Positions 7,339-61,586 of a stretch of DNA of 64,000 nt are shown here, one piece after another. Below the pieces are notes generated by a model that saw only the letters and a program-made list of their open reading frames with translations, was not told where the DNA came from and searched no databases. Every line of letters begins with the position of its first letter. Position 1 is the first letter of the stretch. Location of the stretch: positions 22,444,001 to 22,508,000 of the forward strand of contig NC_086108.1 in assembly GCF_963921235.1 (NCBI RefSeq), read 5' to 3'. This DNA is from Mobula hypostoma (Eukaryota). Both the position numbers and the translations under genes were made by a program.

Positions 7339-8128
7339 TTATATCTGGGAGATTGTTTGTGTCTTCCCTAGTGAAGACAGATCCAAAGTACCTGTTCAAC
7401 TCGTCTGCCATTTCCTTGTTCCCCATAATAAATTCACCTGTTTCTGTCTTCGAGGGCCCAATTTTGGTCTTAACTATTTTTTTCCTTTTCACATACCTAA
7501 AGAAGCTTTTACAATCCTCCTTTATATTCTTGGCTAGTTTCCTTCGTACCTCATTTTTTCTCCGCGTATTGCCTTTTTAGTTACCTTCTGTTGCTCTTTA
7601 AAAGTTTCCCAATCCTCTGGCTTCCCACTCGTCTTCGCTATGTTATACTTCTCTTTTATTTTTATACTATCCATTACTTCCTTTGTCAGCCACGGCCTCC
7701 CCTTACTCCCCTTAGGATCTTTCTTCCTCTTTGGAATGAACTGATCTTGCACCTTCTGCGTTATTCCCAGAAACACTTGCCATTAGTGTATTTGATCTAA
7801 GTTGAAAATTGAACATTTTGAGGGTAAAGTCCATCTGACAGTGTTTGGCTTTTCTTATCCTTGTCAAACCCAGAGGGTGTTTATATCCTCATTTTATTTG
7901 TAGTAAAATGTGAGTTCTTAGTTTTCCTTTGACCAACTGTCAAAATAATTAAGTTGTTGGTGCTTCAAGATGAAACCCTACATTATTTTAATCTGAAATA
8001 TTGACAATTCCTGTCTTCCCACAGATGCTGCATGACTCAATGAGTTCTTCCAGCAAATAATTTGTTGCCACACATATCAAAGTTGCTGATGAACGCAGCA
8101 GCTATGCAGCGTCTCTAGGAAGAGGTAC

Positions 8129-8164
8129 AGTCGATGTTTCGGGCTGAGACCCTTCATCAGGACT
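8129..8164 (-). ncRNA. Minimal hammerhead ribozyme, variant (GUC changed to AUC)
   Basis: agtc CTGATGA agggtctcagccc GAAAC ATC gact. Confidence 0.6.
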
Positions 8165-9129
8165 AACTGAAAGAAGAGCTAGTAAGAGATTTGAAAGTGG
8201 GAGGGGGAGGGGGAGATCCGAAATTATAGGAGAAGATAGGAGGGGGAGGGATGGAGCCAAGAGCTGGACGGTTGATTGGCAAAAGGGATATGAGAGGATC
8301 ATGGGACAGGAGGCCTAGGGAGAAAGAAAAGGGGGAGGGGGGAAAACCCAGAGGATGAGCAAGGGGTATAGTGAGAGGGACAGAGGGAGAAAAGGGAGAG
8401 AGAGAAAAAGAATGTGTGTATATAAATAAATAACGGATAGGATACGAGGGGGAGGTGGGGCATTAGCGGAAGTTTGAGAAGTCAATGTTCATACCATCAG
8501 GTTGGAGGTTACCCAGACGGAATATAAGGTGTTGTTCCTCCAACCTAAGTGTGGCTTCATCTTTACAGTAGAGGAGGCCATGGATAGACATATCAGAATG
8601 GGAATGGGACTTGGAATTAAAATGTGCGGCCGGTGGGAGATCCTGCTTTCTCTGGCGGACAGAGCCGCACATTTTAATTCCATGTCCCATTCCCATTCTG
8701 ATATGTTTGTCCACGGCGTCCTCTAATGTAAAGATGAAGCCACACTCAGGTTGGAGGAACAACATCTTATATTCCGTCTGGGTAGCCTCCAACCTGATGG
8801 CATGAACATTGACTTCTCAAACTTCCGCTAATGCCCCACCTCCCCCTCGTACCCCATCCGTTATTTATTTATATACACACATTCTTTTTCTCTCTTTCCT
8901 TTTTCTCCCTCTGTCCCTCTCACTATACCCCTTTCCCATCCTCTGGGTTTTCTCCTCTCCCCCCTTTCTTTCTCCCTGGGCCTCCTGTCCCATGATCCTC
9001 TCATATCCCTTTTGCCAATCACCTGTCCAGCTCTTGGCTCCATCCCTCCCCCTCCGGTCTTCTCCTATCATTTTGGATCTCCCCCTCCCCCTCCCACTTT
9101 CAAATCTCTTACTAGCTCTTCTTTCTGTT

Positions 9130-9165
9130 AGTCCTGATGAAGGGCCTCGGCCCAAAACGTCGACT
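9130..9165 (+). ncRNA. Minimal hammerhead ribozyme, likely inactive (GAAA changed to AAAA)
   Basis: agtc CTGATGA agggcctcggccc AAAAC GTC gact. Confidence 0.6.
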
Positions 9166-9640
9166 GTACCTCTTCCTAGAGATGCTGCCTGGCCTACTAC
9201 GTTCACCAGCAACTTTGTTGTGTGTGGCTTGAATTTCCAGCATCTGCAGATTTCCTCGTGTTTGCGTTTTTAAATAATTTGTTGCCCCAGATTCCAACAG
9301 ATATAGTCTCTTGCCTCTCAGCAAGTATTTGTATTTCTTAAATGCCTTTTAAATTGGAAGGTATGCCAATCAAATTCACAGGGCCCTTACCAACAATGTT
9401 TGATAAATAGTACCAAGATATTAGGACAGGAACCAAAAGAAGGTGGGAGGAGAGGATTGGTGGGGATGGGGAAGCATCTTCAGAGGAAAGGCTAATAGCA
9501 CCAGCACTTGCCTTAGAGTTGACAGAGGTTGCAAGGTTGAAGGCTGTCCAGGAAGTTATTGAGGAAAGTAGTTTCGAGACATTGGAAAGCCATGCGATAA
9601 CACTGGGCTACAATCTTAGGGTTTAGGAGAGAGCCTACAG

Positions 9641-16825: not shown

Positions 16826-17485
16826 AAACAACAGGAAATCTGCAGATGCTGGAATTTCAAGCAACACACATAAAAGTTGCTGGTGAACGCAGCAGGCCAG
16901 GCAGCATCTGTAGGAAGAGGTGCAGTCGACGTTTCAGGCCGACACCCTTCGTCAGGACTAACTGAAGGAAGAGTGAGTAAGAGATTTGAAAGTTGGAGGG
17001 GGAGGGGGAGATCCAAAATGATAGGAGAAGACAGGAGGGGGAGGGATAGAGCCAAGAGCTGGACAGGTGATTGGCAAAAGGGGATACGAGAGGATCATGG
17101 GACAGGAAGTCCGGGAAGAAAGACGGGGGGGGGGGGACCCAGAGGATGGGCAAGAGGTATATTCAGAGGGACAGAGGGAGAAAAAGGAGAGTGAGAGAAA
17201 GAATGTGTGCATAAAAATAAGTAACAGATGGGGTACGAGGGGGAGGTGGGGCCTTAGCGGAAGTTAGAGAAGTCGATGTTCATGCCATCAGGTTGGAGGC
17301 TACCCAGACGGAATATAAGGTGTTGTTCCTCCAACCTGAGTGTGGCTTCATCTTTACAGTAGAGGAGGCCGTGGATAGACATGTCAGAATGGGAATGGGA
17401 TGTGGAATTAAAATGTGTGGCCACTGGGAGATCCTGCTTTCTCTGGCGGACAGAGCGTAGATGTTCAGCAAAGGGGTCTCCCAGG
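16826..17485 (-). mobile_element. 5'-truncated Penelope-like element
   Basis: Nearly identical to 37244-37860; short duplication ATCCTT at 16820-16825 and 17486-17491. Confidence 0.88.
16924..16959 (-). ncRNA. Minimal type-I hammerhead ribozyme, best-preserved copy
   Basis: agtc CTGACGA agggtgtcggcct GAAAC GTC gact: stem I agtc/gact, stem II agg/cct, conserved CUGANGA and GAAA, palindromic ACGU in place of stem III, GUC cleavage triplet. Confidence 0.8.
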
Positions 17486-26425: not shown

Positions 26426-27698
26426 TGTCATGGTCCGGTCTGTGAAATCCGCATTCCAGTTCACGGTCCATTCCGTGGACTCAGGACTCCGGGTCTTCCA
26501 GCTGTCCCTTGTTTTGATGGAGTTAAGCATAGGCACCTGATTCTCATCTTGAGTCTTGGAATATAAGTAGCCTTGGGGTTGAGTGTGAGCTGCTGGTTTG
26601 TCTTGTCAATCCTCCTTGGAGCAACCTGCTGATGGAAGGCTAGTGAAACCATTTGTGATCTCCAGGACTGGTTGGAGGTCCACTGCTTTATGGAGCCTTG
26701 TTGCCACTCGTCAGTGGTATGGATTTGGCTGTTTCTGTAGCCAGTCAAGGTTGCAGGCTGCCCCGAGACTCAGAGCCACCCTGGATTGAGCTCCTTTCCT
26801 GTCCCTTGCATCCATTGGGTAAGCCAGGCTGATTGCTGTTACCCTGTGGTTGGTTCTGTCCTTTCCTGTCCCTTGCCTCCGTCAGGTAAGCAGGGCTGTT
26901 TGCAGTTACCCTGCTGTTGGGTCCGTCCCTCCCTGTCCTTGCCTCCATGGGGTGAAGTTCTGCATCCTGCCCAGGAGTTCTGCGTCCTGCCCAGGAGTTC
27001 CGCATGCTGCCCAGAAGAAGCTCCAAGAACCCAAACCTCGAAGATCCCAAGCTAAGCTCCAAGAACATAAACCTCGAAGATCCCAAGCCAAGCTCCAAGA
27101 ACACAAGCCTCGAAGATCCCAAGCCAAGCTCCAAGAGCACAAGCCTCGAAGATCCCAAGCCATGCTCCAAGAGCACAAGCCTCGAAGATCCCAAGCCACA
27201 CTTCAAGAGCACAAGTCTCGAAGATCCCAAACCAAGCTCCAAGAGCACAAGCCTCGAAGATCCCAAGCCAAGCTCCAAGAGCACAAGCCTCGAAGATCCC
27301 AAGCCAAGCTCCAAGAACACAAGCCTCGAAGATCCCAAGCCAAGCTCCAAGAACACAAGCCTGAAGTCCCCAGCCTGTAGCCAAGCTCAGGCCTCTAGAC
27401 CCCAGCCATGTCCTGTCTGAAGCCATGTCATGTCTTTGCCTGGTTCTGGGGTCCAAGCCCGTGGCAAGACCCAGGTTCTGGGTCCTTGTCCAGTCTTGGA
27501 CTTGGGCTCAGAGTTGAAGCCTTGTTTCCTAGTCCATGGTTTCTTGTCCTGGTCCCACCTTCCCTAGCCCAAGCCTGTGTTCTTGTCCCTGCTCCTTGCC
27601 TGTATCCTGTCACATCCCTACTCTGGTCAAGTCCTGTTCCTTGTACTTCAGTGTCTGTGTCTCGCATTTGGGTCTGTTCCCAGCACCTCATTGTGACA
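26426..27698 (+). mobile_element. Solo LTR (1273 bp), Gypsy-like, expanded by internal tandem repeats
   Basis: Perfect TGTCA...TGACA termini; 5-bp TSD CATTC at 26421-26425 and 27699-27703; CACCTG and TATAA near the 5' end. Confidence 0.85.
27018..27362. repeat. 36-bp minisatellite, about 9.6 copies
   Basis: Unit AAGCTCCAAGARCACAAGCCTCGAAGATCCCAAGCC; produces 12-aa repeats in all six frames. Confidence 0.95.
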
Positions 27699-34720: not shown

Positions 34721-37309
34721 TCTTTTTTTAAACTTAAAGTAAACATTTTTTTCACTGTCCCTGTTCTGATGAAAGGTCACCATCTAGAAACATCTGTTTC
34801 TCTTTTCGCAGATGCTGCCCAACACACTAAGTATTTGCAGTATTTTCTGTTTTGATTTTAGATTACTGGTGCCTACAATTTTTTTGATCTTCTAGTGCAG
34901 TTGAAGGCTCCAATAATCTGCACACCAACATACTCGGCAATCCATTTCAAAGAGATAATATTAACTTGATCAAGCCCAAGGAGCCAACTGCTGCATTGTT
35001 GACATGATTGACGTTATTTCCCCAGTAGCACCTACAATGTAGGTGATGACTGAAATTTCAAAGAAAAAGTCTTTTGGATGCTTCTGCCAACCAGCCAGTG
35101 GGGTTTAAAGAAGGGGTTTAAGTGTGTTTCCAAACAGTTGCCTTTAATGGAAATGCATCCTATGTATGATTTGGTAAATTATAATGCTGCATTGTCAGTG
35201 CTGTTGTCCAAAAGAATAATAACACAAGACAGTAATCCGAGCCCACCCTTTTATATGGAAGTGAAGGATCCCAAAACATTATTCTATGAGAACCCTGGGG
35301 CTATCCTTCAAACAGCGAATAGACTGGACATGTATTTATCTGTATTTTTTTAGTATTGCACTGAGTGAAAATGGCCTGTAGAATTTTTAATATTATGACA
35401 TTTCTTAAATTATCTTAGCCATTGTGGGAGCATCGTGTGAGTGGGCTAGTGGAGGAGCCTGAGGTCTAAGGGTTTGGCTCAAGAGGCTGCAGCAAGGAGG
35501 ACAGGTGAATGGCAAATAGAAGGGTAAGTTTTTTAATAGTAATTTAAAAGATACCAAATTATATCTAATTAAACAAAGCCAAGATGCAGGATCAGTTGAT
35601 GTGTTGTAGCTGCATGATGTGGGAGCAGGTGTACCCCATTGTGGTTCCTGGTGAGCATGTCTGCTGCATGTTTAGTGGCTTGAGGAACTCAGACTGGAAT
35701 CTGAGCTTTGAACTTTGTGATGCATCAGGGAGGGGAAGAGATACATGGACACTGTGTTTCAGGGAGCTGGGCAGTCACACCCATTAGATTAACTACTTTA
35801 AATTCGGTTTTCTGGCCCGGGATGTGAGGGTGTCACTGCGAGTGAGGCAGGTAAGGGGTTCCAACAGGTAGTGCTGGAGGAGCCTCAGCCCTTAAACTTG
35901 CCCGAAAGATCTGAGATTGTCACTCCCTGTGAGGGTAAGAGTGGGCTGTATGAAATAAGAGGAATTGAATTGTGACACCGTGATTCAGGGAGCTGTTCTA
36001 GAAGGGGAGAGAAGAGAAATGTAGTTGTAATCGGGGATAGTATAGTCAGGGGAATAGACACAATTCTTTTTTGCAGGGATTGAGAATCCTGAAGGCTGTG
36101 CTATTTGCCTGATGCCCATCCATCTGCATATTGAAAATGCTAGGACTATCACCTCAACTGACCTGCAGAGGAATTTAGAGTAGGAGGGGAAAGATCCAGT
36201 TGATCTGTCCATGTGGATAACAATGTAGAAAGCACAAGGCAAGAGATTCCGCTGAGGGAATTTGAGCAGCTAGGGATTAAATTAAGGTGCAGAATCAAAA
36301 AGAAAATAAGTTCTGGTTGGGAGCTCAATATCCAAGGATATACTTTGTATCAAAAGGACAGGTGGATAGGCAGAGGAAGTTGAGTGGCTCTGTTGGTAAA
36401 AAATGAAATCCTTAGAAAGAGATGACATGGGATCAGAAGGTGTAGAATCCTTGTGGGTAGCGTTAAGAAACTGAAGACTGATGAAAGTTATATGTGGGCC
36501 TCTGGACAATATCCAGGATGTGGTTTACAAATAACAATAGGAGATTAAAAAAAAAAGCATGTAAAATGGGCAATGTTATGATAGCCCTAGCATTTTCAAT
36601 ATGCAGATTGATTGGGAAAATCAAGTTGGTGCCAGATCTCAAGGGAAGAAATTTGTAGTATGCCTACAAGATGCTTTTTCGCACAGCTTGTGGTTGACCC
36701 CATTGGGGAAAAGCCAATTTTTGATTGTATGTTATGTAATGAACCAGATTTGATGAGGGAGTGGGTGTTTTAAACCAGATTTGATGAGGGAGCTTAAGAT
36801 AAAGGAAACCTTAGGAGACAGTGATCATAATATGATAGAAATTACCCTGCAGTTTGAGAGGGGGAAGCTAAAATCAGGCGTATTGGTATTACTGTTGAGT
36901 AAACCTAGCTACAGAGGCATGAGGGAGGAGCTGGCCAAGGTTGATTGGAAGAAGGCGCTAGCAGAGAAGATGGTAAAGCAGCAACAGCTGTAATTTCTGG
37001 GAGTAACTTGGAAGATGCTGGATTGATTAATTCTAAAGAAGAAGAAGCATTCTGAAGTGAATATACAGCAACTGAGACTGATAGAGAAGTCAAAGACAGC
37101 GTAGAAGTCCACACGGAAGGCAAAGCAGCATAAAAGCAAAAGTGGGGGTGTACAATCTAGCAAAATTAGTGGGAAGCTAGAGGATTGGTAAGTTTTTAAA
37201 CACCAACAGAAGGTAACTAAAAAGGCAATAAGGAGAGAAAAGACAGGCAACACACATCAAAGTTGCTGGTGAACGCAGCAGGCCAGGCAGCATCTGTAGG
37301 AAGAGGTGC

Positions 37310-37345
37310 AGTCGACGTTTCAGGCCGAGACCCTTTGTCAGGACT
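37310..37345 (-). ncRNA. Minimal hammerhead ribozyme, likely inactive (CUGACGA changed to CUGACAA)
   Basis: agtc CTGACAA agggtctcggcct GAAAC GTC gact. Confidence 0.6.
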
Positions 37346-37634
37346 AACTGAAGGAGGAGTGAGTAAGGGATTTGAAAGTTGGAGGGGGAGATCCAAAATG
37401 ATAGGAGAAGACAGGAGGGGGAGGGATAGAGCCAAGAGCTGGAGAGGTGATAGGCAAAAGGGGATACGAGAGGATCATGGGACAGGAGGTCCGGGAAGAA
37501 AGACAAGGGGGTGGGGAACCCAGAGGATGGGCAAGAGGTATTTTCAGAGGGACAGAGGGAGAAAAAGGAGAGTGAGAGAAAGAATGTGTGCATAAAAATG
37601 AGTAACAGATGGGGTACGAGGGGGAGGTGGGGCC

Positions 37635-40057
37635 TTAGCGGAAGTTAGAGAAGTCGATGTTCATGCCATCAGGTTGGAGGCTACCCAGACGGAATATAAG
37701 GTGTTGTTCCTCCAACCTGAGTGTGGCTTCATCTTCACAGTAGAGGAGGCCGTGGATAGACATGTCAGAATGGGAATGGGATGTGGAATTAAAATGTGTG
37801 GCCACTGGGAGATCCTGCTTTCTCTGGCGGACAGAGCATAGATGTTCAGCAAAGCGGTCTCCTGGTCTGCGTCGGGTCTCACCAATATATAAAAGGCCAC
37901 ATCGGGAGCACCGGACGCAGTATATCACCCCAGTCGACTCACAGGTGAAGTGTTGCCTCACCTGGAAGGACTGTTTGGGGCCCTGAATGGTGGTAAGGGA
38001 GGAAGTGTAAGGGCATGTGTAGCACTTGTTCTGCTTATACGGATAAGTGCCAGGAGGGAGATCAGTGGGGAGGGATGGGGGGGGCGAATGGACAAGGGAG
38101 TTGTGTAGGGAGCGATCCCTGTGGAATTGAGAGAGAGGCGGGGAGGGAAAGATGTGCTTAGTGGTGGGATCCCGTTGGAGGTGGCGGAAGTTACGGAGAA
38201 TAATATGTTGGACCCGGAGGCTGGTGGGGTGGTAGGTGAGGACTAGGGGAACCCTATTCCTAGTGGGGTGGCGGGAGGATGGAGTGAGAGCAGACGTACG
38301 TGAAATGGGGGAGATGCGTTTAAGAGCAGCGTTGATAGTGGAGGAAGGGAAGCCCCTTTCTTTAAAAAAGGAAAATACCTCCCTCGTCCTAGAATGAAAA
38401 GCCTCATGCTGAGAGCAGATGCGGCGGAGATGGAGGAATTGCGAGAAGGGGATGGCGTTTTTGCAAGAGACAGAGTGAGAAGAGGAATAGTCCAGATAGC
38501 TGTGAGAGTCAGTAGGCTTATAGTAGACATCAGTGGATAAGCTGTCTCCAGAGACAGAGACAGAAAGATCTAGAAAGGGGAGGGAGGTGTCAGAAATGGA
38601 CCAGGTAAACTTGAGGGCAGGGTGAAAGTTGGAGGCAAAGTTAATAAAGTCAACGAGTTCTGCATGCGTGCAGGAAGCAGCGCCAATGCAGTCGTCGATG
38701 TAGCGAAGGAAAAGTGGGGGACAGATACCAGAATAGGCACGGAACATAGATTGTTCCACAAACCCAACAAAAAGGCAGCATAGCTAGGACCCATACGGGT
38801 GCCCATAGCTACACCTTTAGTTTGGAGGAAGTGGGAGGAGCCAAAGGAGAAATTATTAAGAGTAAGGACTAATTCCGCTAGACGGAGCAGAGTGGTGGTA
38901 GAGGGGAACTGATTAGGTCTGTAATCCAAAAAGAAGCATAGAGCTTTGAGACCTTCCTGATGGGGGATAGAAGTATATAAGGACTGGACATCCATGGTGA
39001 AAATAAAGCGGTGGGGGCCAGGGAACTTAAAATCATCGAAAAGTTTAAGAGCGTGAGGAGTGTCACGAACATAGGTCGGAAGGGATTGAACAAGGGGTGA
39101 TAAAACAGTGTCGAGGTATGCAGAAACGAGTTCGGTGGAGCAGGAGCAAGCTGAGACAATAGGTCGGTCAGGACAGGCAGGTTTGTGGATCTTGGGTAGG
39201 AGGTAGAAACGGGAAGTGCGGGGTGTGGGAACTATAAGGTTGGTAGCAGTAGATGGGAGATCCCCTGAGCGGATAAAGTCGGTGATGGTGTGGGAGACAA
39301 TGGCCTGGTGCTCCCTAGTGGGGTCACGATCGAGGGGTAAATAAGAGGAGGTATCCGTGAGTTGTCGCTGTGCCTCGGCAAGGTAGAGGTCAGTACGCCA
39401 GACTACAATAGCACCCCCCTTATCGGCAGGTTTAATAATAAGGTTAGGATTAGTGCGGAGGGAGTGGAGAGCAGAGCGTTCCGAAGGAGTGAAGTTGGAA
39501 TGGGGAAAAGGTGCGGTGAAGTCGAGACGGTTGATGTCCCGTCGGCAGTTAGCAATAAAGAGATCCAGAGCAGGCAGAAGACCAGAGCGGGGTGTCCATG
39601 AAGAAGAGGAGGGTTGAAGACGGGAGAAGGGGTCATCGGTGGGGGTGGAAGAGTCCTTGCTGAAGAAGTAGGCTTGGAGACGGCGGAAGAAAAGTTCCGC
39701 ATCGTGGCGAACACAGAACTCGCTGGGGTGTGGGCGAAGAGGGACAAAGGTGAGGCCCTTACTGAGGACAGAGCGTTCTGCCTCCGACAGTTGAAGGTCG
39801 GAGGGGATGGTAAAGACCCGGCACGGATGAGAGCTGGGATCAGAGGGGGGAGGGGGGAGGCTGGGGGTGTCGGAGAGGGGAGGGTTGGGGTGAGAGGAAG
39901 ATGGAGGCTCTGAGGGCCCAGGAGCTGACGATGGGATCTGAAGGAGACGGGATTGCAGAGTATTGATGGGGGAAGGGGAGACGGGAGTCACAACAGCAGC
40001 ACTTGAAGACCCGGCCTGGAGTTCAAGGCTGGAGTTGCAGTTGGTGGTTGCGCAATC
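37635..40057 (-). pseudogene. PLE reverse transcriptase / GIY-YIG endonuclease, one frameshift near 38770
   Basis: LSKGLTFVP, IKPADKGGAIVV, FYLLPKIHK, TMDVQSLYTSIPH, GVAMGTRMGPSYA, FLRYIDD, Cys-rich linker (KCYTCP), VIYCVRCSRCGLLYIGET. Confidence 0.92.
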
Positions 40058-46250: not shown

Positions 46251-47202
46251 GATCTTCGGTGTGGTGCTGAGCAAGTGTGTACTGTTAGTTTCTAGCTTTT
46301 AACCAAACAGGGGCACTGCTTCTCCCTAGAGGTACACTTAAAAGTTTCAAAAAAAGAGTCCAGCATTCATTAATTGTGTCCTCAATCATCCTCAATAAGC
46401 ATTTCAAAAGGTGTATTTAATGTCAGAGAAATGTATACAATAGACAACCTGAAATTCTTTTCTATTTCTTCACTTCTGTCATCTTATCATTTAGTCATTA
46501 TCACATGTGGGGGGGGGGGGTTAACAATGTGCAAATTGGTCGCTGTGTTTTGTATGTTACCACAGTGATGCCTGAGCATTAATATATCTGGAAAAAAGAT
46601 GTCTAAGTTGCTATCTGACTACAAATTCATTTTTATTTTATAACAGCCCTGATTTTTCTGTTTAATTCTTGGGGTAGATTTTATACCAAGAACGTCAGAC
46701 CTAAGGGTCAAAAGTGGTACTCACAGAATTACAGATGAGAGTACATTTATCATCTTTGAGCCTTAACTAGGTGTCAATTGACTGTTCCAACATTAGGGCA
46801 AAGCCCTGACTTTTTTATATAGGTGCATACAATACACATATTCAAGCTGCTGTTAAATGCGAAGGAGACCATGATGCTTTGGCAAGAATGGAGATTCCTC
46901 TCCTCCTTATCAATGTACAGGCTTATCAATGGTACGTCTATGTGGCCTGTTGTGAATACTGCTAGGTCTTTTCCTTTTCCAAGACTAAACAAAGCCTGGG
47001 AACTGTCCTGGTCTTCTACAAATACACCATGGAGAGCATTCTGACTAGTTGCATCACCATTTGGAATGCAGGCGCTAATGCACAGGATAGAAAAGAGGTT
47101 GTAGACTCAGCCAGTTCCATCACAGCTCATCATGGAGAACATCTTCAAAAGGCAGTGTATCAGAAAGGAAACATCCATTTTAAAGGCCTACACCATCTAG
47201 GA

Positions 47203-47370
47203 TGGGGTGGCCAACCTTTTACATTCCATGCATCAATTTTTTTCACTCACGAGTTCAGATGCGCCATACAACTCTTGTACCCCCCCCATTCAATTCTTGT
47301 AAAAAGATGTTAATATAGAACTCGTGCATGAAAAAGTTGACACATGGAATGTAAAAGGTTGGCCACCCCG
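47203..47370. mobile_element. 168-bp hAT (Charlie-like) MITE, largely palindromic
   Basis: TIRs YGGGGTGGCCAACCTTTTACATTCCATG; 8-bp TSD ATCTAGGA at 47195-47202 and 47371-47378; sits in an older LINE 3' fragment (~46975-47500). Confidence 0.88.
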
Positions 47371-49193
47371 ATCTAGGACATGCCCTCTTCTCATTACTAC
47401 CATCAAGGAGGAGGTACAGGAGTCTGAACACCCACACCCAACATTTTAGGAACAATTTCTTTCCCTTTGCTATCAGATTTCTCAACAGTCCATCAACAAT
47501 TATACCAGCTAAGAAGAATAATGTGACCTACCTTAATGACTATCGCCCAGTAGCACTCACATCTACAGTGATGAAATGCTTTGAGAGGTTGGTCATGACC
47601 GGGCTGAACTCCTGCCTCAGCAAGGACCTGGACCCATTGCAATTTGCCTATCGCCACAAAAGGTCAACGGCAGATGCAATCTCAATGGCTCTTCACACGG
47701 CTTTAGACCACCTGGATGACACAAACACCTATGTCAGGATGCTGTTCATTGCCTATAGCTCAGCTTTTACTACCATCATTCCCACAATCCTGATTGAGAA
47801 GTTGCAGAACCTGGGCCTCTGTACCTCTCTCTGCAATTGGATCGTCAATTTCCTAACTGGAAGACCACAATCTGTGTGGATTGATAGTAACATCTCCTCC
47901 TCACTGACGATAAACACTGGTGCACCTCAGTGGTGTGTATTTAGCCCACTGCTCTACTCTCTATATACCCATGACTGTGTGGCTAGGCATAGCTCAAATA
48001 CTGTCTATAAATTTGCTGATGGTACAACCACTGTTGGTAGAATCTCAGATGATGATGAGAAGGCGTTTAGGAGCAAGATATGCCAACTAGTGGAGTGGTG
48101 TCACAGCAATAACATGGCACTCAATGTCAGTAAGATGAAAGAGCTGATTGTGGACTTTAGGAAGGGTAAGACGAAGGAACACATGCCAATCCTCATGGAA
48201 GGATCAGAAGTGGTGAGAGTGAGCAGTTTCAAGTTCCTGGGTGTCAAGATTTTTGAGGATCTAACCTGGTCCCAAAATATCAATGGAGCTATAAAGAAGG
48301 CAAGACAGCAGCTATACTTCCTTAGGAGTTTGAAGAGGTTTGGTACAGTCGAAGTCAGAAGTTTACATACACCTCAGCCAAATACAGATAAACTCAGTTT
48401 TTCACAATTCCTGACATTTAATCCTAGAAAGCACTCTCTGTCTTAGATCAATTAGGATCACTACTTTATTTTAAGAATGTGAAATGTCAGAATAATAGTA
48501 GAGAGAATGATTTATTTCAGCTTTTATTTCTTTCATCACTTTCCCAGTGGGTCAGAAGCTTACATACACTTTGTTAGTATTCGGTAGCATTGCCTTTAAA
48601 TTGTTTAACTTAGGTCAAATGTTTTGGTAGCCTTCCACAAGCTTTTCACAGTAAGTTGCTGGAATTTTGTTCCATCCTTCCAGACAGAACTGGTGTAACT
48701 GAGTCAGGTTTGTAGGCTTCCTTGCTTGCACATGCTTTTTCAGTTCTGCCCAGAAATTTTCTATTGGATTAAGATCAGGGCTTTGTGATGGCCACTGAAG
48801 TACCTTGACTTTGTTGTCCTTGAGCAATTTTGCCACAACTTTGGAGGTATGCTTGGGGTCATTGTCCATTTGGAAGACCCATTTGCGACCGAACTTTAAA
48901 TTCCTGGCTGATGTCTTGAGATGTTGCTTCAATATATCCACATAATTTTCCTTCCTCATGATGCCATCTATTTTGTGAACTGCACCAGTCCCTCCTGCAG
49001 CAAAGCACCCCCACAACATGATGCTGCCACTCCCATGCTTCATGGTTGGGATGGTGTTCTTCGGTTTGCAAGCCTCACCCTTTTTCCTCCAAACATAACG
49101 ATGGTCATTATGGCCAAACAGTTCAATTTTTGCAACACACACAAAATGCTGGTGGAACGCAGCAGGCCAGGCAGCATCTATAGGAGGAGGTAC

Positions 49194-49229
49194 AGTTGAC
49201 ATTTCAGGCCGAGACACTTTGTCAGGACT
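49194..49229 (-). ncRNA. Decayed hammerhead ribozyme
   Basis: agtc CTGACAA agtgtctcggcct GAAAT GTC aact. Confidence 0.5.
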
Positions 49230-51044
49230 AACTGGAAGAAGAGATAGTACAAGATTTGAAAGTGGGAGGGGGAGATCCGAAATGATAGGAGAAGACAGGA
49301 GGGGGAGGGAAGAGCTAAGAGCTGGAAAGTTGATTGGCAAAAGGGATACAAGGCTACAGAAGGGAAAGGATCATGGGATGGGAGGCCTAGGGCGATAAAA
49401 AGGGGGAGGGGAGCACCGGAAGGTGTAGTGAGAGGGATAGAGAGAAAGAGAGAGAGAGAGGGGAAAAACTATAAATAATAAATAAATAAGGGATGGGGTA
49501 AGAAGGGGAGGAGGGGCATTAACGGAAGATAGAGTAGTCAATGTTCATGCCATCAGGTTGGAGGCTACCCAGACGGAATATAAGGTGTTGTTCCTCCAAC
49601 CTGAGTGTGGCTTCATCTTGACAGTAGAGGAGACCGTGGATAGACATATCAGAATGGGAATGGGACGTGGAATTAAAATGTGTGGCCACTGGGAGATCCT
49701 GCTTCATCTGGCGGACAGAGCGCAGGTGTTCAGTGAAACGGTTTCCCAGTCTGCGTCGGGTCTCGCCAATATATAGAAGGCCACACCAGGAGCACCGGAC
49801 GCAGTATATCACCCCAGTCGACTCACAGATGAAGTGTCAAGTCAAGTCAAGTCACTTTTTATTGTCATTTCGACCATAAGTGCTGGTACAGTACACAGTA
49901 AAAACGAGACAACGTTTTTCAGGACCATGGTGCTCCATGAACAATACAAAAACTACACTGAACTACGTAAAACAACACAAAACCACACTAGACTACAGAC
50001 CTAACTAGAACTGCATAAAGTGCACAAAACAGTGCAGGCATTACAATAAACAATAAACAAGACAATTTGCACAGTAGAGGGCAGTGGGAAGAAACTGTTA
50101 CATAGTCTTCTCATGAGAGACCAAATGCTTTGGTGCCTTTTGCCGGGGTGGGGGGAGGGAAAGATGTGCTTGGCAGGGGGATCCCCTCCGCCACCTCCAA
50201 CGGGATCCTACCACCAAGCACATTTTTCCCTTCCTCCCCCCCCCGGCTTTCCACAGGGATCGCTCTCTACGCGACTCCCTTGTCCATTCGTCCCCTCCAT
50301 CCCTCCCCACCGATCTCCCTCCTGGCACTTAACCCTTGTAAGCGGAACAAGTGCTACACATGCCCTTACACTTCCTCCCTCACCACCATTCAGGGCCCCA
50401 GACAGTCCTTCCTGGTGTGGCGACACTTCACCTGTGAGTTGGCTGGTGTGATATACTGCGTCTGGTGCTCCCGGTGCGGCCTTCTATATATTGGCGAGAC
50501 CCGACACAGACTGAGAAACCGTTTCGCTGAACACCTACGCTCTGTCCGCCAGAGAAAGCATTATCTCCCAGTGGCCACACATTTTAATTCCACATCCCAT
50601 TCCCATTCTGATATGTCCATCCATGGCCTCCTCTACTGTCAAGATGAAGCCCAACTCAGGTTGGGGGAACAACACCTTATATTCTATCTGGGTAGCCTCC
50701 AACCTGATAGCATGAACATTGACTTCTCTAACTTCTGTTAATGCCCTTCCTCCCCTTCTTACCCCCCCTTTATTTATTTATTTATTTATAGTTTTTCCCC
50801 CTTTCTTTCTCTCTCTTGTCTCCCTCTGTCCCTCTCACTATATCTTCCTCTGGTGCTTACCTCCCCCTTTCATTCTCCCTAGGCCTCCCGTCCCATGATC
50901 CTCTCCCTTCTCCAGCCTTGTATCCCTTTTGCCAATCAACTTTATTTCTTAGCTCCATCCCTCCCCCTCCTGTCTTCTCCTATCATTTCGGATCTCCCCC
51001 TCCCCCTCCCACTTTCAAATCTCTTACTATCTTTTCTTTCAGTT

Positions 51045-51080
51045 AGTCCTGACGAAGGGTCTCAGCCCGAAACGTCTACT
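51045..51080 (+). ncRNA. Minimal hammerhead ribozyme (core intact, one stem I mismatch)
   Basis: agtc CTGACGA agggtctcagccc GAAAC GTC tact. Confidence 0.7.
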
Positions 51081-52293
51081 GTACCTCTTCCTATAGATGC
51101 TGCCTGGCCTGCTGCATTCCACCAGCATTCTGTGTGTGTTGCTTGAATTTCCAGCATCTGCAGATTTCCTCGTGCTTGTGAGTTCAATTTTTGCTTCATC
51201 AGAGCAGAGGACATTTCTCCAGAAAGTAAGATCTTTGTCCCCATGTTCACTTGCAAACCGTAGTCTGGTTTTTTTATGTCGGTTTTGGAGCAGTGGCTTC
51301 CTCCTTGCTGAGCGGCCTTTCAGGTTATGTTGATATAGGACTCGTTTTACTGTGGATATAGATACTTGTCTGCCTGTTTCCTCCAGCATCTTCACAAGAT
51401 CCTTTGCTGTTTTCTGGGATTAATTTGCACTTTTTGCACCAAAGTACGTTCATCTCTAGACAGAATGCATCTTCTTCCTGAGCGGTATGATGGCTGCGTG
51501 GTCCCATGGTGTTTATACTTGCGTGGTATTGTTTGTACAGATGAACGTGGTACCTTCAGGCGTTTGGAAATTGCTCCCAAGGATGAACGAGACTTGACAT
51601 CATTTTCTGACCTCAATCCAATAGAAAATTTCTGGGCAGAACTGGAAAAGCATGTGCGAGCAAGGAGGCCTACAAATTTGACTCAGTTACACCAGTTCTG
51701 TCTGGAGGAATGAAACAAAATTCCAGCAACTTATTGTGAGAAGCTTGTGGAAGGCTACCCAAAATGTTTGACCCAAGTTAAACAATTTAAAGGCAATGGT
51801 ACCAAATACTAACAAAGTGTATGTAAACATCTGACCCACTGGGAAAGTGATGAAAGAAATAAAAGCTGAAATAAATCATTCTCTCTAATATTATTCTGAC
51901 ATTTCACATTCTTAAAATAGTGATCCTAACTGACCTAAGACAGGGAATGTTTTCTAGGATTAAATGTCAGGAATTGTGAAAAACTGAGTTTAAATGTATT
52001 TGGCTGAGGTGTATGTAAACTTCTGACTTCAACTGTATGTCAACAAATACACTCCAAAACTTCTGTAGTTGTACCGTGGAGAGCATTCTGACAGGCTGCA
52101 TCACTGTCTGGTATGAGGGGGGTGGGGCTACTGCACAGGACCGAAAGAAGCTGCAGATTTAGTTGGCTGAATCTTAGCCTACAAAGTACCCAGGACATCT
52201 TCAAAGAGTGATGTCTCAGAAAGGCAGCGTCCATTACTGAAGACCCCCAGCACCCAGGGCATGCCCTTTTCTCACTGTTACCATCAGGTAGGA

Positions 52294-55200
52294 AACATAG
52301 AAACATAGAAACATAGAAAATAGGTGCAGGAGTAGGCCATTCGGCCCTTCGAGCCTGCACCGCCATTTATTATGATCATGGCTGATCATCCAACTCAGAA
52401 CCCAGCCTTCCCTCCATACCCCGTGACCCCTGTAGCCACAAGGGCCATATCTAACTTCCTTTTAAACATAGCTAATGAACTGGCCTCAACAGTTTGCTGT
52501 GGCAGAGAATTCCACAGATTCACCACTCTCTGTGTGAAGAAGTTTTTCCTAACCTCGGTCCTAAAAGGCTTCCCCTCTATCCTCAAACTGTGACCCCTCG
52601 TTCTAGACCTCCCCAACATCGGGAACAATCTTCCCGCATCTAGCCTGTCCAATCCCTTTAGGATCTTATACGTTTCAATCAGATCCCCCCTCAATCTTCT
52701 AAATTCCAACGAGTACAAGCCCAGTTCATCCAGTCTTTCTTCATATGAAAGACCTGCCATCCCAGGAATCAATCTGGTGAACCTTCTTTGTACTCCCTCT
52801 ATGGCAAGGATGTCTTTCCTCAGATTAGGGGACCAAAACTGCACACAATACTCCAGGTGTGGTCTCACCAAGGCCTTGTACAACTGCAGTAGTACCTCCC
52901 TGCTCCTGTACTCGAATCCTCTCGCTATAAATGCCAGCATACCGTTCGCCTTTTTCACCGCCTGCTGTACCTGCATGCCCACTTTCAATGACTGGTGTAT
53001 AATGACACCCAGGTCTCGTTGCACCTCCCCTTTTCCTAATCGGCCACCATTCAGATAATAATCTGTTTTCCTATTTTTGCCACCAAAGTGGATAACTTCA
53101 CATTTATCCACATTAAATTGCATCTGCCATGAGTTTGCCCACTCACCCAACCTATCCAAGTCACCCTGCATCCTCTTAGCATCCTCCTCACTGCTAACAC
53201 TGCCACCCAGCTTCGTGTCATCCGCAAACTTGGAGATGCTGCATTTAATTCCCTCATCCAAGTCATTAATATATATTGTAAACAACTGGGGTCCCAGCAC
53301 TGAGCCTTGCGGTACCCCACTAGTCACCGCCTGCCATTCTGAAAAGGTCCCGTTTATTCCCACTCTTTGCTTCCTGTCTGCTAACCAATTCTCCACCCAC
53401 ACCAATACCTTACCCCCAATACCATGTGCTTTAAGTTTGCACACTAATCTCCTGTGTGGGACCTTGTCAAAAGCCTTTTGAAAATCCAAATATACCACAT
53501 CCACTGGTTCTCCCCTATCCACTCTACTAGTTACATCCTCAAAAAATTCTATGAGATTCGTCAGACATGATTTTCCTTTCACAAATCCATGCTGACTTTG
53601 TCCGATCATTTCACCGCTTTCCAAATGTGCTGTTATCACATCCTTGATAACTGACTCCAGCAGTTTCCCCACCACCGACGTTAGGCTAACCGGCCTATAA
53701 TTCCCCGGTTTCTCTCTCCCTCCTTTTTTAAAAAGTGGGGTTACATTAGCCACCCTCCAATCCTCAGGAACTAGTCCAGAATCTAACGAGTTTTGAAAAA
53801 TTATCACTAATGCATCCACTATTTCTTGGGCCACTTCCTTAAGCACTCTGGGATGCAGACCATCTGGCCCTGGGGATTTATCTGCCTTCAATCCCTTCAA
53901 TTTACCTAACACCACTTCCCTACTAACATGTATTTCGCTCAGTTCCTCCATCTCACTGGACCCTCTGTCCCTTACTATTTCTGGAAGATTATTTATGTCC
54001 TCCTTAGTGAAGACAGAACCAAAGTAATTATTCAATTGGTCTGCCATGTCCTTGCTCCCCATAATCAATTCACCTGTTTCTGTTTGCAGGGGACCTACAT
54101 TTGTCTTTATCAGTCTTTTCCTTTTTACATATCTATAAAAGCTTTTACAGTCCGTTTTTATGTTCTCTGCCAGTTTTCTCTCATAATCTTTTTTCCCCTT
54201 CCTAATTAAGCCCTTTGTCCTCCTCTGCTGAACTCTGAATTTCTCCCAGTCCTCAGGTGAGCCACTTTCTCTGGCTAATTTGTATGCTACTTCTTTGGAA
54301 TTGATACTATCCCTAATTTCTCTTGTCAGCCACGGGTGCACTACCTTCCTTGATTTATTCTTTTGCCAAACTGGGATGAACAATTGTTGTAGTTCATCCA
54401 TGCAACCTTTAAATGCCTGCCATTGCATATCCACCGTCAATCCTTGAAGTGTCATTTGCCAGTCTATCTTAGCTAATTCATGTCTCATACCTTCAAAGTT
54501 ACCCCTCTTTAAGTTCAGAACCTTTGTTTCTGAATTAACTACGTCACTCTCCATGTTAATGAAGAATTCCACCATATTATGGTCACTCTTACCCAAGGGG
54601 CCTCTCACGACAAGATCGCTAATTAACCCTTCCTCATTGCTCAAAACCCAGTCCAGAATAGCCTGCTCTCTAGTCGGTTCCTCAACATGTTGGTTCAAAA
54701 AACCATCCCGCATACATTCCAAGAAATCCTCTTCCTCAGCACCTTTACCAATTTGGTTCACCCAGTCTACATGTAGATTGAAGTCACCCATTATAACTGC
54801 TGTTCCTTTATTGCACACATTTCTAATTTCCTGTTTAATACCATCTCCGACCTCACTACTACTGTTAGGTGGCCTGTACACAACTCCCAGCAGCGTCTTC
54901 TGCCCCTTAGTGTTACGCAGCTCTACCCATATCGATTCCACATCTTCCCGGCTTATGTCCTTCCTTTCTATTGCGTTAATCTCTTTTTTAACCAGCAACG
55001 CCACCCCACCTCCCCTTCCTTCGTGTCTATCCCTCCTGAATATTGAATATCCCTGAACGTTGAGCTCCCATCCCTGGTCACCCTGGAGCCATGTCTCTGT
55101 GATCCCAACTATATCATAATCATTAATAACAATCTGCACTTTCAATTCATCCACCTTATTACGAATGCTCCTTGCATTGACACATAAAGCCTTCAGGCGC

Positions 55201-55591
55201 TCTTTTACAACTCTCTTAGCCCTTTTTAATGCTTGCCCTGGATTTGTCGGCCTGCCACTTTTACTTTTCCCCTTTGTACTTTTTGCTTCTACGCTCACTT
55301 TACACTCCTCTGTCTCTCTGCACTGGTTCCCATCCCTCTGTTGTGAACTAACCTCCTCACACCTAGCCGCTTTAATTTGATTCCCACCCCCCAACCATTC
55401 TAGTTTAAAGTCACCTCAGTAGCCCCCGCTAATCTCCCTGCCAGGATATTGGTCCCCCTAGGATTTAAGTGTAACCCGTCCTTTTTGTACAGGTCACACC
55501 TACGCCAAAAGAGGTCCCAATGATCCAAAAACTTGAATCCCTGCCCCCTGCTCCAATCCCTCAGCCACGCATTTATCCTCCACCTCATCGC
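52294..55591 (-). mobile_element. Young CR1 LINE, 5'-truncated within ORF1
   Basis: (AACATAGA)n tail; short duplication AGGA; ORF1 C-terminus at 55400..55591 (DGLHLNPRG). Confidence 0.93.
52395..55394 (-). CDS. CR1 ORF2: apurinic-type endonuclease + reverse transcriptase, uninterrupted, 999 aa
   Basis: NARS, ITETWL, VYRPP, MGDFN, LDWV, SDH (APE); YRPVSLTS, YLDFQKAFDKVPH, GVPQGSVLGP, KFADD (RT). Confidence 0.95.
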   Translation of the reverse strand: MGGGNQIKAARCEEVSSQQRDGNQCRETEECKVSVEAKSTKGKSKSGRPTNPGQALKRAKRVVKERLKALCVNARSIRNKVDELKVQIVINDYDIVGITETWLQGDQGWELNVQGYSIFRRDRHEGRGGGVALLVKKEINAIERKDISREDVESIWVELRNTKGQKTLLGVVYRPPNSSSEVGDGIKQEIRNVCNKGTAVIMGDFNLHVDWVNQIGKGAEEEDFLECMRDGFLNQHVEEPTREQAILDWVLSNEEGLISDLVVRGPLGKSDHNMVEFFINMESDVVNSETKVLNLKRGNFEGMRHELAKIDWQMTLQGLTVDMQWQAFKGCMDELQQLFIPVWQKNKSRKVVHPWLTREIRDSINSKEVAYKLARESGSPEDWEKFRVQQRRTKGLIRKGKKDYERKLAENIKTDCKSFYRYVKRKRLIKTNVGPLQTETGELIMGSKDMADQLNNYFGSVFTKEDINNLPEIVRDRGSSEMEELSEIHVSREVVLGKLKGLKADKSPGPDGLHPRVLKEVAQEIVDALVIIFQNSLDSGLVPEDWRVANVTPLFKKGGREKPGNYRPVSLTSVVGKLLESVIKDVITAHLESGEMIGQSQHGFVKGKSCLTNLIEFFEDVTSRVDRGEPVDVVYLDFQKAFDKVPHRRLVCKLKAHGIGGKVLVWVENWLADRKQRVGINGTFSEWQAVTSGVPQGSVLGPQLFTIYINDLDEGIKCSISKFADDTKLGGSVSSEEDAKRMQGDLDRLGEWANSWQMQFNVDKCEVIHFGGKNRKTDYYLNGGRLGKGEVQRDLGVIIHQSLKVGMQVQQAVKKANGMLAFIARGFEYRSREVLLQLYKALVRPHLEYCVQFWSPNLRKDILAIEGVQRRFTRLIPGMAGLSYEERLDELGLYSLEFRRLRGDLIETYKILKGLDRLDAGRLFPMLGRSRTRGHSLRIEGKPFRTEVRKNFFTQRVVNLWNSLPQQTVEASSLAMFKRKLDMALVATGVTGYGGKAGF

Positions 55592-59589: not shown

Positions 59590-61586
59590 AATGAAGTTGT
59601 TACCGACTTCATTAAAACCTGTGTGGATGAGTGTGTGCCTACAAGGACTTACTGTACATTCCCAAACCAAAAGCCGTGGATGAACCAGGAGGTAAGTCAT
59701 CTGCTGAAGGCTAGATCTGTGGCATTCAAGTCTGGCAACCCAGGCCTGTACCAGAAAACCAGGTATGATTTGCAGAGGGCTACTTCAAGGGCGAAGGGAC
59801 AACTTCGAACGGGGTTGGAGGTGATATCAGAAGCATGGCACCTCTGGCAGAGACTGCAAGACATTACTTCCTACAAAGTGAAACCCAGTAGTATGAATGG
59901 CAGCAATGCTTCACTACCAGATGAACTCAACACCTTCTATGCACGCTTTGAAAGAGAGAACACAACTACAGCTGTGAAGATCCCTGCTGCTCCTGATGAC
60001 CCTGTGATCTCTGTCTCAGAGGCCGATGCTAAGACTGTCTTTAAAGAGAGTGAACCCTCGCAAGGTAGAAGGTCCCGATGGAGTACCTGGTAAGGCTCTG
60101 AAACCTGTGCCAACCAACTAGCGGGAGTATTCAAACATTTTCAACCTCTCACTGCTACAGGGAGAAGTTCCCACTTGTTTCAAAAAGGCAACAATTATAT
60201 CAGTGCCAAAGAAGAATAATGTGAGCTGCCTTAACGATATCACCTGGTAGCACTCATATCGACAGTGATGAAATGCTTTGAGAGGTTGGTTATGACTAGA
60301 CTGAACTCCTGCCTCAGCAAGGACCTGGACCCATTGCAATTTGCCTATAGTCACAATAGGTCAACGGCAGATGCAATCTCCATGGCTCTTCACATGGCTT
60401 CAGACCACCTAGGCAACACAAACACCTATGTCAGGATGCTGTTCATCGACTAGAGCTCAGTATTTAATACCATCATTCCCACAATCCTGATTGAGAAGTT
60501 GCAGAACCTGGGCCTCTGTACCTCTCTCTGTAATTGGATCCTCAACTTCCTAACCACAGTTTGTGCGGATTGGTGATAACATATCCTCTTCACTGACGAT
60601 CAACACTGGCGCACCTCGGGTGTGTGCTTAGCCCACTGCTCTACTCTCTGTATACACATGACTGTGTGGCTAGGCATAGCTCAAATACCATCTACAAATT
60701 TGCTGATGATACAACCATTGTTGGTAGAATCTCAGGTGGTGAGGAGATGTGTACAGGAATGAGATATGTAAACTAGTGGAATGGTGCTGCAGCAACAACC
60801 TGGAGCTCAGTGTCAGTAAGACAAGAGAGCTAATTGTGGACTTCAGGAAGGGTAAGACAAGGGAACACATGCCAATCCTCATAGAGGGATCAGAAGTGGA
60901 GAGAGTGAGCAGCTTCAAGTTCTTGGGTGTCAAGATCTCTGAGGATCTAACCTGGTCCCAACACATTGATGTAGTCATAAAGAAGGCAAGACAGCGGCTA
61001 TACTTTATTAGGAGTTTGAAGCAATGTGTCATGTCAACAAATACACTCACAAACTTCTATAGTTGTATGGTGGAGAGCATTCTGACAGGCTGCATCACTG
61101 TCTAGTATGGAGGGGCTACTGTACAGGACCGAAAGAAGCTGCAGAAGGTTGTAAATCTAGTCAGCTCCATCTTGGGTACTAGCCTACAAAGTACCCAGGA
61201 CATCTTTAGGGAGCAGTGTCTCAGAAAGGCAGAGTCCATTACTAAAGACCTCCAGCACCCAGGGCATGCTCTTTTCTCACTGTTACCATCAGGTAGGAGA
61301 TACAGAAGCCTGAAGGCACACACTCAGCGATTCAGGAACAGCTTCTTCTCCTCTGCTGTCCAATTCCTACATGGACTTTGAAGCTACCTCATTTTTAAAA
61401 ATATACAGTATTTCTGCTTATGCACATTTTATAATAATCTATTCAATATATGTAATTGATTTACTTGTTTATTTATTATTTTTTTCTCTCTCTGCTAGAT
61501 TATGTATCGCTTTGAACTGTTGCTGCTAAGTTAACAAATTTCACGTCACATGCCGGTGATAATAAACCAGATTCTGATTCTGATTC
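59590..61586 (+). mobile_element. Rex1/Babar-like LINE, 5'-truncated and frameshifted
   Basis: [51 protein letters not shown]; (GATTCT)n tail. Confidence 0.88.

Follow-up and report, generated by a model that had tools for sequence, protein, structure and literature searches.

The element and its host

The window, the whole stretch of 64,000 nucleotides of Mobula hypostoma DNA that was analysed, holds at 48346–52035 a dead Sleeping Beauty (SB)-type Tc1 fossil with ~93% identity to two full-length, asymmetric parents of 1639 bp, L001 and L002. It interrupts a LINE whose reverse transcriptase lies on the plus strand at 47494–48343 (RVT_1, E = 2.2e-25) and which resumes at 52038–52302; the two parts are 87% and 83% identical, respectively, to a further copy at 60189–61307. 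A TA stands on either side of the element (48344–48345 and 52036–52037), read from the sequence as a target-site duplication: joined with one TA kept, the flanks align gap-free to the LINE copy near 61020 (94 of 109 columns identical), so exactly 2 bp were duplicated. The paralog has CA where the TA would stand, and the adjoining bases differ too; hence, of the earlier statement that the LINE reads through the junction as it does near 61020, the colinearity holds and the TA in the paralog does not. Immediately to the right of the element the host LINE is interrupted again, at 52395–55415 (minus strand), by 1006 codons without a stop; their translation resembles a LINE endonuclease plus reverse transcriptase, and the open frame points to a young copy. 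Elsewhere in the window there are a small MITE-like element with 46-bp inverted ends (47197–47376) and a tandem duplication with a period of ~145 bp (27010–27375).

The transposase gene is read on the minus strand, in two parts. Its N-terminal part, from the last base of codon 19 to ~codon 154, occupies 51195–51596 (HTH_SB, E = 2e-11; HTH_Tnp_Tc3_2, E = 1.5e-17), carries a 3-bp and a 1-bp deletion and is 93.3% identical to L001. The catalytic half (~codons 155–340; 48576–49133; DDE_3, E = 3.7e-19) includes D244 and E279, has lost 1 bp, carries a stop near its end, and runs without interruption into a right IR/DR with both outer and inner DR (48346–48575, minus strand), which together with the half-gene forms the basis of the 92.4% identity to L001 across 48341–49132. 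Although the DD34E residues D153, D244 and E279 are all retained, the 340-codon ORF is broken by the loss of its 5' part, two frameshifts, a stop and a nested insert. Beyond the N-terminal part lie a 15-nt piece of parental 5' UTR (51595–51609, minus strand) and then, on the plus strand at 51607–52035, an added copy of parent positions 1206–1639 (codons 274–340 and the right IR/DR; 92.4% identical to L001), in which codon 308 is a stop and 5 bp are deleted. We refer to the original right end with its adjoining gene segment (48346–48778) as arm A, and to the added copy as arm B. Overall, the three SB pieces are 92.4–93.3% identical to L001 at the DNA level.

The left 444 bp of the fossil have thus been swapped for an inverted copy of the element's last 434 bp. 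The two arms align at 428 columns, of which 28 are substituted (23 transitions and 5 transversions), with two gaps, which bears out the inverted copy of the last ~430 bp that a sequence-only reading of this DNA had placed at the left. The same reading listed the left IR/DR, the 5' UTR and about the first 19 codons as lost: the first two are indeed part of the parent's absent 444 bp, the coding loss amounts to 18 codons plus 2 nt, and a piece of the 5' UTR survives. Without its nested insert the element measures 1629 bp; restoring the 10 bp lost in private deletions brings it to 1639 bp, the length of the parent. Put as a balance, 444 bp were lost and 434 + 10 = 444 bp gained, a net length change of zero. 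Comparison of the window with itself reveals no second SB copy in the 64 kb.

Both ends are of the right type

The P0004–P0006 proteins (340–358 aa) match the catalytic fragment at 88% identity; the P0005 and P0006 clusters contain salmonid Tc1 proteins and a pT2 vector transposase. In metagenome contigs scanned with P0005, 130 stretches were candidates and 3 were confirmed, and such contigs supplied L001 and L002, both complete 1639-bp elements with flanking TA (the reading frame of L002 is frameshifted). In these parents the left and right ends are just 69% alike, as the earlier assertion of an asymmetric parent would have it, and the first 27 nt of the two tips are identical.

The ends of the window element are ~230 bp long with two direct repeats each, as in SB-type IR/DR elements, and both retain intact TA-CAG tips. 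Against the right IR/DR of the parent, 212 of 230 and 215 of 235 columns are identical, versus 159 of 241 and 158 of 238 against the left; the presence of two right ends, each flanked by TA, is therefore confirmed. DR half-sites are found 16 and 213 nt from the tip in arm A, and 16 and 208 nt from it in arm B. The parental left end has a further half-site, 154 nt from its tip, which has no counterpart in either window end when up to three mismatches are allowed. A half-DR motif of the SB left end is called an enhancer in PMC5224488, and from its position and likeness we take the parental half-site to be this putative HDR enhancer. Given that both ends are right-type and that the left-end half-site is without counterpart, the element is a derivative of the SB-type Tc1/DD34E IR/DR group, not a canonical member. 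With its Sleeping Beauty or salmonid-type relatives it shares the TA duplication, the two DRs per end and the 1639-bp frame, whereas it is without the left IR/DR, the half-site and the gene start, its reading frame is broken and an insert is nested within it.

Sequencing runs from other organisms also bear on the parent. When 24 runs were compared by shared words, the best share was 0.37. Four of them were aligned, and the depth on the LINE flank fell roughly hundred- to ten-thousand-fold below that on the element, reaching zero in the last bin; this collapse leads us to take the four as non-host organisms with the same transposon family. In all four, the loose ends behind 51596 continue as a normal gene start (156, 112, 61 and 153 records). 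A symmetric parent with ordinary long TIRs is excluded by this normal gene start together with the asymmetry of L001 and L002. None of the 32 pieces listed, of 220,574, crosses the junction in these non-host runs, a count that has no bearing on the host.

The ~93% DNA identity to the salmonid-type SB elements L001 and L002 is seen here in a ray genome, and would fit horizontal transfer. In a survey of SB relatives (PMC9777934), the TIRs listed for ray-finned fish reach 415 bp, and cartilaginous fish have no SB-clade element listed.

A nested Penelope-like insert

More than half of the 48346–52035 span is taken up by a 2-kb insert of which the sequence-only reading makes no mention. It is Penelope-like (49134–51180), consists of two inverted halves, gives two GIY-YIG matches (E = 1e-4 and 2.8e-4, the second barely under the Pfam cut-off) and is bounded by identical 14-bp target duplications at 49120–49133 and 51181–51194 (both plus strand). 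The halves, at 49132–49838 and 50422–51142, are 89% identical (8.8% diverged). Within the left half, a fragment at ~49839–50141 ends in a five-base tandem tail, which suggests that it may be LINE-like; a 41-bp inverted repeat (50145–50242) adjoins it and marks the centre of the palindrome, both features lying within 49839–50247. Another Penelope-like insert with head-to-head inverted halves, 6.9% diverged, lies at 8059–9264, and single halves are present at 16833–17484 and 37244–38188. We considered the palindrome as the feature that set the switch point of the end swap and rejected it, as the breakpoints are symmetric about the element tips rather than the insert (355 versus 402–416 bp).

The junction is templated throughout

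On the minus strand, 51609–51595 is an exact 15-nt match to parent positions 261–275, unique in both L001 and L002; in the parent this stretch sits in the 5' UTR, directly inside the left IR/DR. Its 10 central bases (51597–51606) had been described as a ~10-bp filler, a description that falls away with the template. Of 20,000 shuffled versions of the 10-mer, 192 occur in the parent; this rate applies to the filler alone, and the five flanking matches push the chance of the 15-nt match below it. Weaker templates of 12 and 11 nt (antisense 5' UTR) were discarded because they leave bases unaccounted for. The step from the inverted right arm into the 5' UTR piece occurs at a 3-nt microhomology (CAG), and that from the 5' UTR to codon 19 at a 2-nt microhomology (CA, codons 19–20), with 169 bp skipped. 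The parental sequence explains every base, and the number of untemplated bases is zero. As a piece of 5' UTR is retained at the junction, the source molecule must once have had a normal left part. One 9-bp motif occurs three times in the SB 5' UTR, once inverted (L001 positions 266–275, 304–312 and 382–390), and may act as a template-switch hot spot.

Of the host genome, the search for further copies covered this window. The exact 22-nt junction pattern is absent from the metagenome contigs, and the P0005 search of viral contigs yielded no confirmed match. Neither of the two near-length candidates matched the junction-spanning peptide; among longer proteins it gave 63 matches in 93 candidates, the antisense part being found in none.

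Age of the end swap

The end swap is old, the arms differing at 28 of 428 sites. Relative to L001, they have 20 differences in common, which are transversion-rich, and private differences numbering 20 in arm A and 8 in arm B; the unduplicated middle of the element differs from L001 at 40 of 757 sites. Five of the eight shared residue changes occur at a frequency of at least 5% among 99 homologues, and the 20 common differences are accordingly best read, on sequence comparison, as probably family-level. The arms have no stop or frameshift in common, and one CpG has decayed in opposite directions. The fraction of the copy's lifetime that preceded the duplication is estimated at 0–0.38, with upper limits of 0.34–0.69, according to how many differences are assigned to the family. 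Non-CpG divergence is equal per arm (25/840) and in the coding segment of the insert (16/560). The swap was probably made early in the life of the copy.

Palindromes nested in one another, as here, are prone to misassembly, but the 6.5% difference between the arms and the oppositely decayed CpG show that assembly did not generate one arm from the other. Autointegration products carry a transposon tip joined to an internal TA, as PMC3952818 describes them, whereas neither junction is of this kind, both being internal microhomology joins. We therefore regard an assembly artefact or an autointegration product as very improbable.

The imbalance in private change (20 versus 8; p = 0.036, polarised on L001 and post hoc) hints that the arms may have come from two copies, either through ectopic repair of the left end from a younger copy or through deletion between head-to-head copies, the resulting hybrid then having moved. 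In the nested insert the two halves show no such imbalance (33 versus 31), and the contrast between arms and insert is significant when all columns are used (p = 0.009), but it vanishes without the low-complexity part of the insert (p = 0.29). Two donors would also leave the zero length change without an explanation, and we judge such an origin improbable. Two related proposals were dropped: a more recent date for the added arm than for the nested insert, which fell once the low-complexity columns were removed, and simple fusion of two neighbouring copies at the site, which the colinear LINE rules out.

Origin: repair in place or movement as a unit

The sequence-only reading held that the element appears to have transposed as a unit, and offered the TA and the LINE read-through in support. 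These do not carry the claim: the tips of the parent are identical over 27 nt, and a template switch in place would likewise keep the TA and the flanks.

Our leading proposal, to which we give about an even chance, is a one-off template-switching repair at this site, early in the life of the copy. A normal left/right copy would have landed at the TA of the LINE. While a gap was being repaired or replication restarted, one of the new strands would have come in at the left tip, changed template to the right end via the 27-nt tip identity and copied 434 nt inwards, while the other strand would have traversed the gene to codon 19 and jumped 169 nt into the 5' UTR; the two strands would then have joined at the 3-nt microhomology. 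The Penelope-like insert may have arrived at roughly the same time or later, and the right/right form would never have needed to transpose. This proposal is favoured by a junction that is wholly self-templated, by the conserved length and by the weakness of right ends in SB. Random breakpoint pairs match the parental length within 2 bp in 0.4–0.9% of cases (a post hoc figure with arbitrary priors that assumes a parent of L001 length), a low rate that suits a single event within one element. Three considerations count against repair in place: the early date is just as compatible with formation at another locus and later movement to this one; after one self-templated event the two arms should have gathered equal private change, whereas 20 and 8 are observed; and mariner families with shared breakpoints exist, so that a random example is likelier to come from a family, if any exists.

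A right/right derivative could instead have been born at another locus and been cut and pasted here by the family transposase, whether in one isolated jump or as part of a non-autonomous family; we see this as a close second, somewhat less likely than repair in place. The intact TA-CAG tips, both DRs at each end, and the normal spacing and length between the ends are as a mobile unit would require, and the mariner precedent, the early duplication, and an arm non-CpG divergence no different from that of the insert all fit as well. On the other side, the enhancer-like half-site is missing from both ends, and one copy is known. A direct assay by Izsvak in 2002 is said to have found the SB right/right pair a poor substrate. 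From published work, the SB left end is reported to be required for high efficiency (10.1101/659086); solo right ends gave no transposition and solo left ends 0.56% (PMC3952818), which makes right ends the weaker SB ends; and SB is cited for its preference for one end (PMC4505599). In addition, zebrafish IR/DR elements are reported to give rise to no amplified MITEs (PMC5224488).

Comparison with end-replaced transposons

The closest parallels are mariners. In Rpmar49 and Rpmar17 of Rhodnius prolixus the 5' part is replaced by an inverted 3' part (PMC4678618); the former has 13 transposed copies, for which a model of deletion between head-to-head copies was offered, and the latter 227 copies with varied breakpoints. 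The window element likewise has an inverted 3' part in place of its 5' part, and long terminal repeats that include transposase sequence. As far as their published description goes, however, these are short-TIR mariners of <1 kb in many copies, whereas the window element is an IR/DR Tc1 of full parental length known from one copy, and is set apart from them by the templated 5' UTR piece at its junction. The rearranged Drosophila MITEs Dromar7, Dromar11, Dromar28 and Dromar36 form seven sublineages in which the 3' end is replaced by the 5' end (PMC4161770). One end replaced by the other and long TIRs are features in common with the window element; these MITEs are, according to the same source, always left/left and shown to be amplified, in contrast to the right/right window element. 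Galileo (PMC3573991) also recruits internal sequence into longer inverted repeats, but is of the P superfamily, with TIRs described as symmetric from the outset. By analogy, our element would work like the end-replaced mariner derivatives.

At 1629 bp and with most of its transposase kept, the element is not a MITE, MITEs being mostly <600 bp (PMC4877112), and zebrafish Tdr1 is reported in PMC5224488 to be without derived MITEs. A search of the literature, with few subscription journals among the papers covered, found no natural right/right SB-type element.

Significance

As a single dead copy, the element has no evident effect on the host. If the junction is single, it is an unusually legible repair fossil, with two microhomology junctions, a templated piece and zero net length change, and it bears on the origin of end-replaced transposons, which the mariner papers term elusive (PMC4161770) and puzzling (PMC4678618).

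It is less likely, and in our view rather doubtful, that the element belongs to a natural right/right SB-type family, without the left-end enhancer, that has spread through the genome and in which the junction is multi-copy. Mobility of a two-right-ended form would, if true, be surprising. A multi-copy junction would be a case from nature against the rule that the left end is indispensable to SB, and would offer ready material for studying the function of the left-end enhancer. Such a family would mean that right/right ends, a poor substrate for engineered SB, can be mobilised by a wild SB-type transposase, and that copy-back derivatives of exactly parental length arise from IR/DR elements.
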